Source of the DNA: Saccostrea echinata
Taxonomy: Eukaryota
Assembly (NCBI RefSeq): GCF_033153115.1
Contig: NW_026889835.1
Span: forward strand, 3,224,001-3,288,000
DNA: 64,000 nt
Reading direction: 5' to 3'
Below are positions 19,001 through 30,900 of the stretch, piece by piece. The notes beneath the pieces were generated by a model. It was not told the DNA's origin. It saw only the letters and a list, made by a program, of their open reading frames with translations, and ran no database searches. The stretch's first letter is position 1. Each line of letters begins with the position of its first letter. The position numbers were made by a program, and so were the translations under genes.

Positions 19001-21745
19001 ATGGATACCCCGCGACCATGTTCAAAAGAAGAATTCAGAGTGAAAAACTTTCTTCTGGATTATGATCATCCGCGTGATTTTGTCAAGTTTCAGGTAAGAA
19101 ACATACAAAATCAGCTGTGTTCACCAGTCTGATTTATAAGTTCATGGGTCAATACTTTGTTTACTATAAAGAAAGAGACACTGATTGCAGAGAAATGTAG
19201 TTTTCTGTCTAAACGAGAATGCGTTCATTATTTATCGAGTGAAGGTAAATACAGAATTTAATACATAATAAGCTATCCTGTAAATTTTATATATACTCCA
19301 CCTAGCAAATTAAAAGTTCACACTTAATAATATCGATGTCTGATTACTGATGCATGAGGTAACTCCGAAACCAGATTAGCAATTCTAAGGTTTAAGAAAA
19401 GCAAATCAGCCTATGGTTATACAACATCAACAATAAGAGATCTTGAGTGATCGCTAGGATTTTTTTTCGCTTGAGGATACTCTTTCCATTTAAATATATT
19501 AGTATATAGTTATAGAGATGAAGGATGATGTTTTCTCTGTGGAAACTATACATTCAGTTCAGGATAAGGGAAATTTATTCCGGAAGTAGACACTTTTGTT
19601 CCTATCTTTCGCTCGTATGTAATAGTTGGGTCTGTTCATCCGTTTGTTTCTTTTTTAAACAGTTTTGTTTCCAGACAATATCAGAAGAAAATCCTTTATC
19701 TTTTTATCGTAACTCCTTATGACTTAAAGAAGACCCCTATTGATTTTGAGGCCAAGGGTCAGAGGGCAAGCCTGAAGGTCAGAAATTCATATATAGCATA
19801 AAATAGTTTCCAGATTATGGCAGGTAATGACTTAAGTTCTCTATTCAACAAAAGCTTTTTGCAATGAAAATTTTATATCTTAACTTCCTATATGATTTTA
19901 GAAAATTTCTAAGGTCAAAAGCCATGGTCGGAAAATCGTACTTTGCATAAAATGCTTTCCAGATGCTAATGGAGCTTTTGCATTGAAAAAGGATGATTAC
20001 TCTCTCAGCTTAAGAGAGACCGGAGTGACCCCTATTGATTTTAAGGCCAAAGTGTGAAAGGTCAAAGTCACAAAGTTGTATATGGCAGGAAATTGTTTCC
20101 AGATTCATTACAATACTTTCTGTAACCAAAACATGACCCCTGTAGATTTTGAGGGAAAAGGGTCAAGGTCACAAACTTGTATATTGTTACAGACTGTTTT
20201 CAAGTTATATCACAACTTCTGTCCTTAAGTTGAGGACATAAATTTCTTGAATTGCCTTGTATTAATACTCAGTAGCACCAATATCAGCAAGGAAAAAAAA
20301 CATACAAACGTTAAAAGTTTGGTGTTAGAACATCTGAGCTGAGGGCTCCATAAGGTTCTTCATAACATTTTCACGATTTCAGTCAATTTGTCAAATTAAT
20401 AGCCAAATATTACCTGTATTTAAGCCAATATTGTCAGCGAATTTTTCAAATTCCACCATTAAAACAGCAACACCATTTTGATGTTATATGTATATGTATC
20501 TACATGTTTATTTTAAAATTGGACAGAAGTAATATATTTTACCATTTCTATATCTAAGCACTGTGAGACAATACTACCTTATCTTCTGTGGCGACTGTTC
20601 TGGGCTGTATACCACTTTGTCTGTATCATACTGACCGGGGTCTATAGCTGGCAGTGGGCAGGCGATGACCCTCAACAACAGGTCAAATGGTTCATCTACC
20701 TTACAGACTGGTGCTATTTTGTCCTCACCGTCTCGACGCTTGTGGATGCAGCCTGCGTCATTTACGTTTACTTTTGCCGAGTGGACATTAAAAATGGTTT
20801 AGAATATAATACAACCTCCTTTAAATTGATTTACATGTACATTGTTCTTATGAAGACATTTTGAGTTTTTCTTGTGATATAGTTAAGTGCTCATAAAAAT
20901 TTTGGCCCACTCCACACATACTGAAATTAGTTCTTTTTTAATTCTGTTGCTATCAGGTATTTCAAATGGCATGACATGGTACTTAAAGACGAACTGGGTT
21001 ATCTTCAACTTCGCAAACTCTGCTGCTATTGTTGTGACATTAATGTACTGGGGACTTGTCTACAGTGGTAAGAACCTCCTTTCTAGATCAGCCCTCGTTT
21101 GCGAGTCTTTCCTGTATATGTGCTCCTTGTGATATAAAGAAAAATGTAAAAACAACAAGAAAATGCATTCTAATTATGGTCATTCAAAAATTATAGGTAT
21201 ATTTTTGAATATGTAAGTCTGAAATATTTTTTGTAATTTCTCGTTCTCATCGGGAAAAATTCCCCGTGTGCATATCGCCAGCATTAGATGTCGATAACTT
21301 GCCTTTTTTCGATTTACTACTGCCCTCTCTACATAAAGTGAAATTTTTGAAAGATTCTTACAGATGATCATCTATTTTTATTTTTGCAGGAGGATCGGTG
21401 ACTGTCATAGACACATTAACACACGGAGTGAACGCGGTCTACGTTCTTGTCAACGTCAGCGTCTCGGCCATTCCGATCCGAATCTATCATTTCTTCCACG
21501 GTGTGGTATTCGGAGTAACGTATGTCATTTTCACTGTGATATACTATGCAGCTGGAGGGACTAATCACCAGAATAAATCTTACATTTACTCTGTGTTGGA
21601 TTGGGATGATCCGGGCATTACTCTAGCGTACTGTGCAGCAGTTGGACTTGTTGCCATGCCCCTTTGCCATCTTATGATTTACGGCATTTACGCTTTAAGG
21701 CGATGTCCATGTAGAAAAAACAAAGAGACTTCACAACCAGTCTAA
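19001..21745 (+). CDS. rost: Protein rolling stone-like (FAR-17a/AIG1 superfamily) multi-pass membrane protein (~265 aa)
   Basis: Exons 19001-19093, 20559-20796, 20957-21067, 21390-21745 splice in frame (798 nt). Hallmark motifs KWFIYLTDW, VTLMYWGL, LTHGVNAV, PIRIYHF, YVIFTVIYYAAGG and YIYSVLDW; about six hydrophobic segments. Confidence 0.88.
19620..20235. repeat. Degenerate satellite-core (HINE-like) repeat in rolling stone intron 1
   Basis: Recurring GACCCCTATTGATTTT(G)AGG...GGTCA units at ~19733, 20027 and 20135. Confidence 0.55.
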
Positions 21746-23581
21746 ACATTTTTAACAAATTAGAAAAAATTCTAGTTAAGGAAGCTCTAAACACTGCACA
21801 CTAAAAAGTTCTATTTGTAGGGTAGTTTTATTGAGTTAGAGTGATCTGCCCTTAAAAGAAAATTAGAATAAATGGGAAACTACAGTTAATGACACAATTT
21901 CTTATGAATTAAAGTATTCTTAATGTTATGTTAGACCAAGATTAAGTAATTGAATACATTATTTCCATTAATTTTCCCGATGCAAGTAAACAGCAGTGAT
22001 TTCTGTTCAAAAATAGTTCATTGTCTTTGAACATTTTTTCTGCAGAAATAAGGCAGGCACCCTATGTTGAAAATGAACTAGATATACTGAATATATGAGC
22101 ACCTTTATATGATATATTTTTCTCGAAGTCCAAAAAGCATTTTTCATTAGTGTTTAGAGTTTCCTTAAGGAGAATCAGGTTCTTGATATACTAGTATTCA
22201 ATTAGATAGATTTCCTTCGTAACACTGCTTTGCCTCAAAATGAATTTTATTGACAAGCCAACAATCAAATCATCAGACGATATTTTTGATCAGACACAAC
22301 CGTAAATAAGCATGTTTTCTGTCTTATATATGGTAAATGTTGACAAAATACATTGTAATTGGGGGTAGGGGTACGAACCCCTGTGCTCCCTTCCAGTTAC
22401 TCAGGGCTTATGGTATGCATTGGCTTTTATTTCAAGTGGATCACCATTTTCTGTCAGAAATATACAGTGTATTATACTGGGTATTGGTATCCCCTCTTTT
22501 AAATGAAATCGCAACCCAGGAATCAAGTACTATATTAATTGCAACCAGACTGAATTAATTTTATTAACCTTTTAAGGGTATCGTTCTAAAAATATATGAA
22601 TACAATGACAGTTAATGCAATGAAAGACAATTCAAAATAAAGTTTACTTTTGTATTATTCATGTCTTATTTCTTAAAATTATAGCCATATTACATTTGTT
22701 ACATGTTTAATGAAACAAATAAATAGTTTCATGATGTTCAACAATACGTTACTTTTCATTATGCACCAAAATATTTATAAATATCAATAATTATGATAGG
22801 CCTACATATTGACACAAAAATAAAATGTATACAATACACATTTATTGAGTGGGGTCGAGGGCAAATGCGTTTTGTCGGGCCCAAGAACCAAACTGTTTGA
22901 CTGAGGCCAATAGTTAAAAATATTGAGTAAAGGATGACTGCACTTAACGCCTATTTTTGGGTCTTTTTCGGTTGCTTCTGTTGCTTTTATATCTAAACTT
23001 TATTTCACTTTTGTATGTTTATGAAAGAATCCTGTCAATTTGGAACCAAATTTAAATCTTAAAATGATTGTAGACTGTGATACAATAAAATGATTCAATG
23101 TTTTTTGTCCTTACTGCTTTCCAAATATAGTGACTTTACACTTACCTGCCCTTGATTGAACATTAGATATGCATGAGAGGTGGAGCTAACATTGTAAGAA
23201 TGGCTCTAAAATTAGACTTGATAAATAACAATGACATGTTTGGAAAAAAGAACGTGATCACTCTTTCCAATCTCCCTCTCCATTCTGTATGGCACAAATA
23301 CACTTCTGACAAAAGCTTCAAAACAAAATTAACAATATGAGCATGTCAATGTAATTAAAGCAGATTATATCTCAATGCCAGATGATTTAATGTGTTCGAA
23401 CACAATGTCCTAGTTGGCACAAACATGCTACCTTACAAGTCACGTGACGGAATTTAGTATTCACAAAGTTACCTGAGGTAAGAAATCACGTGGAGAATTA
23501 TAATATTCAACATGTCAGAATCCAGAATCAACACAGAGAGCGAATGTAAGAAGAAGCAGTTTTTTTCTCTTTTTAACCATG

Positions 23582-23677
23582 AGCGCATGTTTGTCTATTA
23601 ATCTCCTTTTGACATATTATTATTTATGCAAATATACAACTACTGTTAAAACGTAGAACAATAGACAAACATGCGCT
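23582..23677. repeat. Small hairpin element
   Basis: Perfect 18-bp inverted repeat AGCGCATGTTTGTCTATT / AATAGACAAACATGCGCT. Confidence 0.75.
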
Positions 23678-24413
23678 GACTATGTATAAAGTCAGTAAAA
23701 AAGTGGGCGTCCTCATTATCGAACGGAGATTCAAGAAATTGTGATGACCCCTGCCTTTGAAAACAGATTCGAACTTCGTAAATACACACTTTTATTAAAC
23801 GTAATTACATAAAGTTGTAGATTGGATGTTGACCATTCTTGCAATGAAAAGAAAAATTCATGTTTTGAAAGTTTATTTTGTCGCAAATTTCGTATGTCCT
23901 TAAGTGCAGTCATCCTTTGGTCAGGAATGAGATTCATGTGTACAACTTTGGGGTTAAGATTAATGAAATTCCAGTAAAAAACGATTATGGTACAATACGG
24001 AATTCTGAATATTAAGTAGTGCGAAATTCACTTGTACTGGTATCGTAGGACGTGTATAGGACACCTAACTGGATTGTAACAAAGTTCTATTACAATTATT
24101 TTTTTAAATAACTCTTGCATTTTTTGTATCTTAGATTTAATATACTCAGAGTGAATAATATCTCATTCAATTAATAATAAACTTTTGCCAGACATGGCAC
24201 CTATTTATAACCCCGCCCCTTCAATGAAACAAGATTATTTTCCATTATGCGTGATTAAAGGCAAGTAAAACACCATTGATTTTAATCTTACTCCATGTGG
24301 GAGAAAACAAGATAAGTTGTGACCTTGACTGGAAATGACATGTTAGGGCTAAATTACACATTCCAGGTGTACGCTTATCGCCCCAGGTATATACTGTCAG
24401 AGTAAAAACAAAA

Positions 24414-27400
24414 ATGGCGGCATCCGAAGAACAAATGATGTCGTCTGGGGTTGTTGTGTTACAGGAATTCGTGGAGATGTTTCAGCTTCCAAAAATTAGT
24501 CAGGTAGTGGGTGGACAAGGGTTAAAAGATGCCCCGTTCGGTGTGGGAGAGGCGCTAATGTTGAGGACGCTGGCAGTGGAAAGTGTGGGCTTCAGATTTT
24601 ATGATGCGGATGCAGGCTCACGGCGCGAGGTCAGAGTGCCCGTTGACAACAACTTCAAATTTCATGTTGTGCAGGACTACAATTCACCTACTCCAAAGGT
24701 TTATCCGACTGTAGCAGATTTGTTGGAAGACTGTCCGACAGTTTTCAGGGCGAATACGGAAGTTATGACCAAAAATGGTAGAACATTGCAATGTGGGAGT
24801 GTATTGAAATTTGTTCGGAAAATACGGTCCATTATCGATAGAAGTCTTTGTTTAGAGTGTAAAGATTCTGCTGGAACAAATCATAGTTTACCATTGACTT
24901 CTCAAGGAAACTTTACGGTTACACACGACCCATCATCATACACTCTACAAGATATTATCTCTCTAGGTGCAGTGGAAAGAACTTTAAGACTTTCTAATGA
25001 AAATAAGAAATTTGCTGTCGTCCGGGACAGTCGTAGTACTGAAAATGACGTCACGAGTCATTTACCGGTTTACGACAATGTTCAGACCAAAGATGCTGCA
25101 CTGTCACGAATAACCGGTCTACCTCTTACATTCAAAGGCAATATTTACATGCAGCGGCCGGAGCTATTTCTTCTTGCCTCTCCCGCCGATGATTTCGAAG
25201 TGAGATGGAAAATTGCATTAGATTCAGGACTACATTTCACAATTCCTGAAGAGGAGAAAAATGTTGACTACGAAGAACCAATCAAACCAGAATTAGTGCT
25301 AAAACAATTTGTTGAAGAATTTGAACAAGATTTTCCTGTAATAGCAAGAGTTGGCAGATGTGATCATCTACACGAAAAATTTCAAAATTATTTGACAGAA
25401 AACTTAGAGGTGCTTGTTCACCGAGTTGACAAGGTTGAGAAATTATTGTGTAGTATTTCTGATGAAAAATTTTGCATTAGTGAAAGAGTTAAAGGCAGAT
25501 TGCGGAAGTCTTTGACGCGGTTTCAGTCACTGTCAGAGCTGATGTCAATGGATTTGACAGAGGAGGAAGTCAAGATAAAAATGATGGAGGACATAGCAGC
25601 CGACGTACCTGTGCATTTCTCTCTAAAAGCAGGTGATATTATCATCTTTAAGAATTTCCATGTCTTCACAGTGAACGTAAAACTTGGAAAAAAGTCGTAC
25701 GGGAAATTTGAAGTTGTTTCTTGTGAAAAAATTCTTGAAGATGAAACAAAACAAAAACTGCAGCTACCGTTGGATCTTGAAGCAGATTTCATTAAGCTTC
25801 CAAAACTTGGTGAAGAATCTGGATTTGACATTAATATGGTTTTCTCGAAATCTATCAATTTACCATTAACTGTTGATTTTATTCCCACGTGTAATACAGA
25901 AAAGTGCTTTCTACCAACCGATCAAGATATGACGATAGAAAACTTGGTAATCGATTCTGTCGCGGTCATTTCACCAATGCCTCGTAGAGAAAACGGGCGG
26001 GAATCTGCGCTTAGCGCGCGATTAAAATTCTGTCTTTTGCTTCCACTGAGAAGTGACATAAATCTAAGATTAGAGGAGAGGTTGCAATTTCCACCAAATT
26101 ATTTTATATTCCCAAGAAGACACACATGGATAGAAGAGGACGTTGAAAAACTGTCGGAGGGTGAATACGGGTTTTTGACAAAATATAACGATAGTGCGTA
26201 TGAGGACTATTCATTTCGACAAGCTTTTTCTGAATGTGATCTCAAAGGCTATAATGATTCACAATCGTAAGTACCCAGTAATATAAAGCTAATATATGAC
26301 AGATGATTTCAAGTTCAACTCTTGTTCACTTTTGAATTGCATGCTTCTAATGTATTTCCAGTGAAAAATCGACAAAGAAAAGTAGTAAAAAATTAAAGAA
26401 AAAAGTTCGCTCTGCAACAGAGCTCCAACTAGACAAGATTGACCTTGATAAAGTGACCTCTCAAGGTCGATCGAGAACTGGAAGTGAGAGTGATCTCGTT
26501 ACACATGCTGTCAGACAGGATATTGATGGTAGGATTTTGATCAAAAATTGAATATTTATAAATTGTTTGCGAATTTTTACAGAACTATCTAACTTAATTA
26601 AAAATCACCCCAAGGGAAAACTAAATGTGCTTCATTTTAACTTCTGAACTTTAGGTTTAACTATTAAATATTACCATTTGCAGATGAAAACATATACGAG
26701 ACATTTGAACCTGGTAAAAGGAGAAAGGAGCGGAGAAAATCAGGTTTGGAAATTAAGTCCTCAAACTGAAAACATTGATGATAATAGAACTTTAGTGTAA
26801 TGCTTAAATATTTCCTGTATTAAGTATGGTACGGGCCATTAATTTTTCATCTGTGGTATACTTTACATAACAGTAATAAATCCATAATTATCCTTCAATG
26901 TATGCACCAGTTGCATGGTTGCTGCATATATCAGGTGATGTGTATCCACATAATTTGAAGCAGGATTTGTCTATTAATACCAGCTAACTGCTTAGCACAA
27001 TAGGTACATGTATCCCCACCAAACTTGAATGCTTTCCGAGAAGTATGCTTGTTAAGCTCATTGACAAACATGCTCCAGTCATTGACTGTTTAAGCATAGC
27101 ATTCCCAACATCAGACTCGATGGGCATTTTTAAAAATCTGTATCTGACAGTATACTCCATATAGCAAGGCCTAGATTCATGTTTATCTTAACAAAAATTT
27201 TAAGAAATATTTTATGCTCTTTTTAGTCAAACCTCATTATATTGTAAGGATGGAACCAAGAAAAACTTTCAAGACATTCAGTATTCCCAATACTGAGGTT
27301 AAAATTCATAAATGTAGTTAGGACTTCCAACTAACTTTGAGATATCCATGGTATTTAAGATAACGAAGTTCAACTTTATATTTTTTTTTTCAGAAACATC

Positions 27401-27443
27401 ACTCAAAAGTCGGATCAAGAGAAGAGTGTCAAAAATCTTCTAA
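24414..27443 (+). CDS. Tandem CABIT-domain (THEMIS-like) protein, ~709 aa
   Basis: Exons 24414-26266, 26362-26528, 26684-26743, 27394-27443 (2130 nt in frame). Two repeats start LQEFVEMFQLPKISQV and LKQFVEEFEQDFPVIARV. Each has the CABIT signature phi-x-C-x(n)-LP-phi-xxx-G-x-F: LECKDSAGTNHSLPLTSQGNFTVTHDPSSYTLQDII (compare THEMIS VSC...[26 protein letters not shown]) and VSCEKILEDETKQKLQLPLDLEADF. Basic, Tyr-motif tail ends ...RRVSKIF*. Confidence 0.82.
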
Positions 27444-27648
27444 CAAGCTAGTCTTGAAGGCTCCAAATAAAATATTTATTTCTATTTACTCATTGATTCC
27501 AGAAGTCTGGCATATTTGTGGAATTATTTTGATGTACCAACTCACAAAAATAAAAACAACCGAAACAAATTAGTTAATTTATTGGATTTATGTTTATAAA
27601 ACAGTCTTTTCCCTCATATAACACAACTTCACTTCTAGTTTTCCTCCT

Positions 27649-27685
<37 letters not shown>

Positions 27686-27923
27686 AAAATTAATATATTT
27701 CCCCAATGCAAAATCATCTATACTAAATAAAACATACAATTTTTAACACTTTTGAACTATTGCTTAAAAATTTTTTTGATTAAAAAAGAAAGAACAATAA
27801 ATTTGTATATTTGTCTTCTATCTACAGAGAAATTGAAGTATTGTCCTCAAACAGTTGTACATTACTATTCACATACAATTCAAAAGAACTCGGATCAACT
27901 ATAGAGTTTCACTTACTTTGAAA

Positions 27924-30900
27924 TCATTCATCTGACCATGTAACTGTGCCATCTGGAGTAACTATGGTAAATGCTCCATCTTTGATGAGCTTTTGTTCTA
28001 GTTCATAGGGGTCTGTTTTGCTGAAAGATTTATAAAGAAGTTGTTATAAAACCAACATATGTAATCATGAGCTCCTCAAATGACTTTTTGATGAGATCTT
28101 CAATAGAAAATAACTAAAAGTGTGTATACAAAGTGTACAGATTGTTTAAGAATAGTGCAATTTTAAACAAGAAGCTAATGAGCCTTGACAGTCACCTGAG
28201 TATCCCAAGTTTTTATGACCAGTTTGGACACACCTGGAATTGATTTGGACTTGCATCACAAAAATTTCACAGTCTGGTGAGGACTTTATCAGTATTATTT
28301 TCATGACCCTGTAATCATTATTTTATATTCATGCACATTGCACCTAATCTCCTAGAAGTTCAAAAGAAGAAAAAGGTACACTGAATGATAAAATTCCAAT
28401 ATCCTAGCCCAAACCTGAGGCTTGATCCAGAGGGATAATTTTTGAAATTTTTTGTACAAGGTTAGGTGCTCATTACAATCATGCACAGTCCATGAGTAAT
28501 GAAGAAAATTTCAAAAATGTATTTTATTTTCAATATAAGAACAGCTTAGCCACACCCTGGAGCCTGAATGTGCCAGGGGCCATGAATTTCATTTTTGGTA
28601 AAGTGCTTAGTGTAATTCCAGCAGTTCGTCTGCCAGCTAGATGTCCGTGAGTAAATAAGATTTTCAAAGGTGTGGTGTATTTGACCAGCTAAGCCCCATC
28701 CTGAGGCCTAAATAGTGGACCAGCAGGCATTAATTTTATAATTTTGGTAAAGGGTTAGTAATGTTTGAAATCTTGCAACCAGTTGTGCTGGAAAAAGACG
28801 GTTTTTGCATTAATTCTGATGGTTTTGGACATACCTGTCTGCCCCCAAGAAGACCAAGACAAATGAAAGGATGTATTCATTATTACAAAAGAATTGACCT
28901 ATAGGAGAGAACAATTTCCCGGAAAAAGTGACATTTAAAAACCAATCTTTATTTGTTGTTTTCTACCGTATATATGTCTAAATTTTTCAAATTTGAATTT
29001 TACAACTAAAATTTATTATTTACAACTTCACAATAAACCTCCAAAGTTGGCCGAAACACCATTTTGTCCGTTAAAGCGTTGATTTTTGCATAAATTTTGG
29101 CCTAGAAGTCCTTCAGGGCAGGCCTGCCCCTAAATAAAATTGTGATATTTTGATAGGTTGGGATGTAAGGAATAATTTAAGATAGGATTTTTTTAGGGGC
29201 ACCCCTGCCCTAGGGTCGAAATTCACAAAAAACCTACAAAAATAAGTAAACTTGATTTTGACAATCTGCTTCAAATTTATACTGTTAAATCTTGTAGTCA
29301 GAATAGCTCATTTGATATATACGCTGACTTTTATATCGTGGGTACTTTATTTTTAAAGTCGGGGGTTCGAATCCACCTATTGCCACACTTTTATAGTTTT
29401 AAATTTTTGCCTTTTCAAAGACTATTTTAATTTTTTATAGGCTTGTGTATGTTTCTTCAATTATCTATCCTTTATGCATTCCCATTTTTGATATAAGAAA
29501 CACTAGAGAGAGAGATTAAATCATAACAATTCATTGTACAGTTGTCAGTCAGGCAGAACAACTCTCAGTATAGCACACTTTCTCCGAGGACAAGAATAAC
29601 TCGCTCTGTGTTACTCGATACAGGTATTCTCGGCAGCATTGAGCTGCGATGAATTTCAATTGTATATATTCCTTAGAATTTAATCACATTGCTTTTATTC
29701 TGTCTGTGCTACTAATGCATGGGTTACATGTAGTACATGAATGTTACGTATTGCTTGAATTATTTGAGCTTAATATATTTAGAATAACATACATGTACTT
29801 TTGTTTTCAGTCAATGTTTTAAGATCTTAAGTTTTGAAACAGTAGGACTACATATATCTGTAACTGTACTCCCTTGGATTTCATTTAGGCCCATATGATT
29901 TGCACACATTAATTGCATGTTTTTTTTATATCCAACTGAAATGTGTTGTAAAATAAATAGCCTAGACATAAAAAATAGAGTTCCAGAGACAGTAGACATT
30001 ACCATTATGTACAATGAGAAGTAAAGAAAAATATCAATTATTACATTTGGAGATAAACTCAGAATATCAATGAAAGTGTTCCTCCTACCTCTACTCACTG
30101 AAATAAAGATTTATGAAAAACAAATTGTTACATGTATTCAGCCTAATGTCATTAATCGGAACGGAAATCGACAAGCTTTTTGTAGAGAAAAAACCAAGCC
30201 TGGCCCTATAGGTCAGATCCCTATTTATACAGAAGTGAACCTTTGTAATTTTTGTTCCCCTTTACTCACAGATAGTATTGACCAAACACTGGTTGATGGT
30301 TGAATTGGTTCAACTGTTACAAAATGCCCAAAAGTTTATGACTGTAGCACAATGAATGAAGGGGCACAAAACAGATGGCAACAGGTCACCTGTGTTACTC
30401 AGGTGACCTGAAAAGTGAAATTCTGTACTGATCTGGTTATTAGAGAAATAAAACATAGATATGTCAACAATTTACTTATATGATTTAAGTATTGTCTGTG
30501 CAGTAACCAATTTATTTATTTATTTTTTCTTGCATACAAATTTGTTTTATACTGGGTAGATCCTTTTTAGGACATTGATATTGTGTATGCACTCATTCTC
30601 TGTACTTTCAAAATGCTGGATACATGTATATGCATTATAATTTAAAATTATTTGCAAAAGTATATTTGTGAATATGAAACGCTAATGTAGAGCAAGGAAG
30701 AATTTCACTGGTGAAGGAGAGATAACCTCAACATCACTGAAGAAACTGCAACATAATGATAGCCGACTCACTGTTTAGCTACTCATAGTATTTTAAGGCA
30801 TTCTTTTTCTATATGAGTTATACGTACATACACAATTCTCATACCAACTGAAATACATTGACATAAACATGAATGTTGGGTAAATTTTCTTCATGTCACC

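Follow-up and report, generated by a model that had tools for sequence, protein, structure and literature searches.

A four-exon gene of the oyster Saccostrea echinata encodes a protein with two CABIT domains in the arrangement otherwise described for the vertebrate THEMIS proteins. The gene (LOC133177035) lies in the 64,000-nucleotide stretch analysed here (hereafter the window; NCBI RefSeq assembly GCF_033153115.1, contig NW_026889835.1, positions 3,224,001 to 3,288,000 of the forward strand), and positions below are those of the window. Taking all the evidence together, it is probable that the two domains match those of THEMIS in order through one duplication before the protostome–deuterostome split, and that the product would act as a scaffold switched by tyrosine phosphorylation.

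The locus is a genuine spliced gene. An uninterrupted reading frame of 618 codons runs on the + strand from an ATG at 24414 to a TAA at 26268-26270, and its translation is the first 618 residues of the 709-residue RefSeq protein XP_061168104.1 (100% identity), the last 91 residues of which are encoded by three exons further downstream. Joined, the four exons (Table 1) translate exactly to the RefSeq protein, and the TAA that closes the first reading frame falls inside intron 1. The introns are all GT-AG, of phases 2, 1 and 1 in order, and splicing of all three is seen in contigs from 4 of 4 sequencing runs (three studies; that the runs are of RNA is a guess), with one run placing the first joint 5 bases earlier and differing in the 5 letters in between. 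The first-pass annotation, made from the DNA letters, had placed both domains on one 1.85-kb exon; a single exon does hold both, but it is the first of four.

Pfam CABIT (PF12736) matches the whole reading frame in two stretches with 65.7 bits (E 5.6e-18; cut-off 24) and the first half alone with 42.9 bits. Profiles of the two repeats, taken from 48 homologues, are themselves homologous (97.2%, E 3.4e-11; 95.3% in a further profile-profile comparison), and Cys, LP and Gly fall into shared columns, which bears out the two repeats that had been proposed. The signature cysteines named at that time, in LEC and VSC, indeed align with Cys152 and Cys413 of THEMIS, and the LPLDLEADF reported for the second repeat is present. 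The strict core motif, wXCX7-26wXLPwX3GXF, as given in PMC9250082, is failed by both oyster repeats, the first having His at one hydrophobic place and the second Ala for Gly, in which the latter also differs from THEMIS. Among the 48 homologues this motif occurs in 14 first repeats and no second repeat, and a relaxed form in 38 and 6, respectively. The earlier boundaries were right in delimiting two domains, though repeat 2 reaches residue ~593 and not 555, in agreement with the revised boundary reported for CABIT2 of THEMIS (267-550).

A profile of 31 family members matched three PDB chains, all of them human THEMIS and all colinear over residues 2-550 (E 3e-46 to 4e-47), and an independent profile of 18 annelid-type proteins gave a colinear match to THEMIS over chain residues 78-529 (E 6e-26). 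Names are known for part of the members only, and “bivalve-type” and “annelid-type” denote groups formed by similarity. We also made a profile of each half from 8 rows, namely the oyster half and 7 other invertebrate proteins, the two sets being disjoint and Ptychodera left out of both. On THEMIS, that of repeat 1 scored 54.0 bits with CABIT1 vs 21.0 bits with CABIT2, while that of repeat 2 scored 7.1 bits with CABIT1 vs 91.5 bits with CABIT2; the 33-bit preference of repeat 1 appears to be the more telling half of this reciprocal match. The alignment with THEMIS stays colinear through the linker, where one tyrosine (oyster Y286, THEMIS Y259) is nearly invariant. Judged by these comparisons, the invertebrate family is most likely an orthologous lineage of THEMIS.

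The family itself was collected by a protein scan of 1.84 billion representatives, which gave 49 proteins at E<=0.001. Named members come from bivalves (Saccostrea, Ostrea, Crassostrea, Pinctada, Pecten, Mizuhopecten, Ylistrum), gastropods (Lottia, Gigantopelta, Babylonia, Physella, Elysia), the cephalopod Argonauta, the chiton Liolophura, the annelids Owenia, Capitella and Paralvinella, and the hemichordate Ptychodera. For the 48-row alignment, 11 fragmentary or partial proteins as well as near-duplicates were left out and full-length versions preferred. Both repeats are complete in 40 of its rows, the repeat 2 head is missing from 7 and 1 is short at the C-terminus, with the order of the repeats identical in all 48. 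The databases label members automatically as CABIT domain-containing or THEMIS. Besides the oyster gene, otherwise uncharacterised entries include LOC125670644 (Ostrea), LOC111122096 (Crassostrea), LOC117325235 (Pecten), LOTGIDRAFT_232294, CAPTEDRAFT_210308 and “protein THEMIS” of Elysia marginata, for none of which did literature searches find a functional or evolutionary description. Three short oyster-like fragments (P0073, P0076, P0084) show one-directional changes (many Pro/Ser/Ala to Leu/Phe/Val), which suggests C-to-T-converted reads or decayed copies.

The tandem very likely has one ancient origin, in a single duplication before the protostome–deuterostome split, as favoured by the reciprocal matches of the halves to THEMIS together with trees that separate the first from the second repeats of molluscs, annelids and the hemichordate alike. 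In a tree built on 58 repeats, which represent 29 of the 48 proteins, one branch has the first repeats on one side and the second repeats on the other (Shimodaira–Hasegawa-like approximate likelihood ratio test, SH-aLRT, 98). The same split has support 100/99 in a more careful tree, for which 34 repeats were taken from 17 proteins, namely 14 of the 48 together with Capitella, Paralvinella and a longer form from Owenia; both halves of this tree recover the mollusc and the Capitella-Paralvinella groups. Forcing the repeats into a single clade was rejected by the approximately unbiased (AU) test for the mollusc-type repeats (p-AU 2e-21), the Saccostrea pair (0.0014) and the Ptychodera pair (0.006). 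Clustering of repeats 1 and 2 with each other, set beforehand as the outcome that would speak against THEMIS orthology, is thereby rejected, and a duplication confined to molluscs is rejected by the first of these values. Of the two origins that had been left open, then, the deep pre-vertebrate one is supported by the profiles and the 34-repeat tree, and the independent one is not. An independent duplication within molluscs or oysters would fit the literature covered, in which vertebrate Themis alone is described with two domains; given the AU rejections, the reciprocal matching to THEMIS and the tandems in Capitella, Paralvinella and Ptychodera, we consider its probability negligible. A further possibility is convergent fusion, in which existing single-domain genes of CABIT1 and CABIT2 type were joined repeatedly in the same order. 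This would likewise yield reciprocal matches and a tree in which first and second repeats part, and for one type at least single-domain forms do exist, since the CABIT core of GAREM is reported to resemble CABIT2. Nevertheless the colinearity through the linker, the nearly invariant linker tyrosine and the shared repeat order all tell against fusion, and no stand-alone CABIT1-type gene was identified, short proteins not having been searched; we think it improbable.

The absence of introns from the tandem had been taken as a possible sign of retro-duplication. A recent copy made from mRNA would account for 1.85 kb without an intron, and vertebrate Themis2 is described as having introns within CABIT1 (PMC4082722), where the oyster gene has none. 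However, the three introns downstream of the tandem are spliced, and an uninterrupted tandem exon is common among annelid-type loci, of which 3 of 4, on contigs where non-coding sequence flanks them, hold the two repeats in a single reading frame. In two of those three the frame is closed by a phase-2 donor, 31 and 35 codons past a conserved Glu, and oyster intron 1, also of phase 2, lies 39 codons past it. These are likely the same intron, a statement that stops short of proof because the region is unalignable. Exon 4 of Themis2 starts in the C-terminal part of CABIT1 and spans all of CABIT2 (PMC4082722), so that CABIT2 sits on one large exon in both genes. For these reasons a recent retrocopy is unsupported and very improbable, and the large exon is best explained as an old lophotrochozoan trait, which may go back to an ancient loss of introns in a lophotrochozoan ancestor.

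The structure model of the oyster protein shows two heads, and its partial structural matches are the same as those of THEMIS CABIT2, with no THEMIS chain listed by the fold searches; each repeat is predicted to be a CABIT fold into which an SH3-like head is inserted. The 7 rows without the head of repeat 2 also lack its Cys (oyster-equivalent residues ~368-466). They are P0088/P0103 (Owenia), P0075, P0078, P0080, P0083, P0086 and P0087; aligned with THEMIS, their profile falls into two pieces, and five models of a head-less protein span a predicted local distance difference test score (pLDDT) of 58-78, the best reaching 78.5. Such a natural core fits a published guess that the SH3-like head is an insertion into CABIT.

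The known interaction elements of THEMIS present a different picture. THEMIS is reported to clamp the SH3C domain of GRB2 through a PxRPxK motif and the hotspots R544/R545 (PMC13381594), and to bind SHP1 via phospho-Y34. PxRPxK is absent from the whole oyster protein and from the 50 residues after repeat 2 in all 48 rows, many of which stop at the intron. It occurs in 2 of 37 scanned tails, that of a scallop protein (P0098) and that of P0102, where its position directly after CABIT2 (as PSRPPK) suggests an old motif that oysters have lost. The column of R544 holds Arg in none of the 48 rows and that of R545 Lys or Arg in 22, the oyster having T589 and K590 there and G586 at THEMIS Y541. Y34 lies in an insertion of THEMIS relative to the profile, and the oyster protein has no such loop and no Tyr at all before residue 63. 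With PxRPxK, the R544/R545 pair and Y34 missing, the protein is not a strict THEMIS; the earlier name “THEMIS-like” therefore suits its domains and not the elements by which THEMIS is known to bind GRB2 and SHP1.

Tyrosine motifs are present in their stead. Where THEMIS has its proline-rich sequence (PRS) the oyster protein has a conserved YEDY. An additional, variable loop in CABIT1 carries YxN in 16 of 16 bivalve-type proteins, whose identity to the oyster protein ranges over 32-80%, and in none of the 32 others, against 11.6% expected from shuffled loops. Towards the C-terminus, [NC][IL]YE is found in 17 of 18 full tails, that of Ptychodera included, and its oyster form, ENIYE, makes Y678 a candidate SH2-docking site. 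The GRB2 SH2 domain is reported to recognise pY-X-N and Y660 of Themis2 (in YEEI) to recruit Lyn, and ENIYE is a known substrate motif of Src-family, Abl and Syk kinases.

We propose that the oyster protein would be a non-catalytic scaffold, which tyrosine phosphorylation would switch on. Y678 and Y596/Y599 would be phosphorylated by a tyrosine kinase, probably one from the Src family, and so become SH2 docking sites, a step that the analogy with Themis2 Y660 makes reasonably likely. More tentatively, the YxN motif suggests that GRB2 could be recruited inducibly by its SH2 domain at pY220-D-N, and not constitutively via SH3C and a proline-rich motif. More tentative still is the thought that the scaffold may tune a phosphatase of SHP type, in the manner of mammalian CABIT proteins. 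The same ancestry might instead go with another job that involves no phosphotyrosine docking, for instance that of a nuclear or polarity factor acting through the basic tail and the CABIT surfaces. Drosophila Serrano has a role in planar polarity. Exons 2-4 encode basic clusters that look like signals for targeting to the nucleus or the membrane, THEMIS itself is reported to enter the nucleus (PMC3931654), and such a job would suit the absence of the PRS, R544/R545 and Y34. On the other side, the tyrosine motifs are nearly invariant within unalignable disordered regions and ENIYE-like motifs extend from oyster to hemichordate, and we therefore hold another job to be unlikely.

Several points count against the ancestry and the scaffold function that we favour. 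The single oyster sequence found nothing among PDB chains at E<=1, and its second half alone has no Pfam match at E<=1, repeat 2 being seen by Pfam only within the whole protein. The match of repeat 2 to CABIT2 may in part be a retained ancestral state, because the GAREM core resembles CABIT2 as well. The trees hold no THEMIS, GAREM or Serrano sequences, THEMIS entering by profile scores alone, and the repeats of Ptychodera, the only named invertebrate deuterostome, are long branches. The predicted template modelling score (pTM) of the oyster model is 0.46, so how the two CABIT domains are arranged relative to each other is not fixed. The YxN motif occurs in bivalve-type proteins alone, and these are related to one another and not independent. 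Finally, the scallop tail carries PPRPKK far out, so that proline-based binding, to judge from this motif, may persist in some bivalves.

Compared with THEMIS, THEMIS2 and THEMIS3 (PDB IDs: 9i3p, 9iaz, 9uou), the oyster protein thus shares the two CABITs and their order, with colinearity over ~550 residues, the pair of signature cysteines, the predicted heads and a disordered tail with a tyrosine motif. The stretch aligned with the basic nuclear localisation signal of THEMIS (345-349), RLRKS, is partly basic. To our knowledge, oysters have no lymphocytes, unlike the hosts of THEMIS. GAREM1 and GAREM2 (FAM59A/B) and Serrano, set beside the oyster protein by description and not by direct sequence comparison, also contain CABIT; they have a single copy together with SAM and a proline-rich region, whereas Pfam shows CABIT only in the oyster protein. 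GAREM is reported to be a tyrosine-phosphorylated adaptor. Some invertebrate tandems share a SAM-like tail with that type: Capitella P0142 has one below the Pfam cut-off (SAM_1, E 0.002), and SAM-like ends in P0102, P0091 (Ptychodera) and P0103 (Owenia) were judged by eye only. The ancestor may have been CABIT-CABIT-PRS-SAM, a bridge between THEMIS and GAREM.

Table 1. Features of the oyster gene, in window positions.
Feature	Position	Strand	Residues, basis and remarks
Coding exon 1, both CABIT domains	24414..26266	+	1853 bp; codons 1-617 and 2 bases; joint 26266>26362 in contigs
CABIT repeat 1, THEMIS CABIT1-type	24447..25283	+	~12-290; Pfam on first half alone, profile scores
Predicted SH3-like head, repeat 1	24693..24926	+	~94-171; structure model
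Signature Cys149 (LEC)	24858..24860	+	aligned to THEMIS Cys152
Low-confidence loop inserted in repeat 1	25014..25094	+	201-227, pLDDT <50; Y220-D-N at 25071-25079, candidate GRB2-SH2 site
CABIT repeat 2, THEMIS CABIT2-type	25287..26192	+	~292-593; profile scores, second Pfam stretch in whole protein
Predicted SH3-like head with long hairpin, repeat 2	25557..25805	+	~382-464; structure model
Signature Cys437 (VSC)	25722..25724	+	aligned to THEMIS Cys413
YEDY motif	26199..26210	+	596-599; position of THEMIS proline-rich sequence; conserved
Intron 1	26267..26361	+	GT-AG, phase 2; contigs
Exon 2, basic low-complexity tail	26362..26528	+	RefSeq match, contigs
Exon 3, ENIYE and basic cluster	26684..26743	+	ENIYE at 26686-26700, Y678; RefSeq match, contigs
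Exon 4, coding part up to stop	27394..27443	+	RefSeq match; one contig runs on to 27638 as 3′ UTR (untranslated region)

Elsewhere in the window, a gene of the rolling stone (Rost) family has an exon just upstream at 21368-21745 (+; Pfam PF21534, E 5e-19). An exon at ~50174-50465 (+) has no Pfam match and is followed by a probable splice donor; we take it to resemble the N-terminus of a NOL4-type protein. Multi-copy repeats, on which many divergent short contigs pile up, flank the gene at 23000-23918, ~27320-27400 and ~27450-28150, with an A-run at ~27651-27681, and the assembly has a gap (a run of N) at ~54390-54590.

The CABIT family is reported to reach back to cnidarians, with three Themis proteins having two domains (PMC4082722, PMC3931654, PMC9250082), and one preprint states without detail that THEMIS is conserved across metazoans. 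The restriction of the THEMIS family to jawed vertebrates, assumed at first, proves too narrow in view of a reported lamprey THEMIS1/2/3 homologue (PMC11372201). Full-text literature searches, whose coverage left out most subscription papers, found no description of invertebrate tandem CABITs, which Johnson et al. 2009 may already show. With the family known metazoan-wide and these proteins already labelled in databases, the surprise is moderate.

THEMIS has been treated as a T-cell selection protein, and the action of its CABIT domains on SHP1 is disputed. Invertebrate versions with both domains but without the proline-rich site, R544/R545 and Y34 offer ready variants for probing the CABIT pair alone. 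A bolder picture, which we put forward as speculation and think rather unlikely in its entirety, is that the THEMIS tandem was an ancestral bilaterian phosphotyrosine scaffold predating adaptive immunity. Bivalves would have rewired its GRB2 link to the inducible SH2 site pY220-D-N in the new CABIT1 loop, replacing the constitutive SH3-proline clamp; the scaffold would set signalling thresholds via an SHP-type phosphatase, possibly in haemocytes, and the sister lineage without the CABIT2 head would be a natural dissection of the fold. Should the tandem be bilaterian, what it does at its core would be older than lymphocytes.
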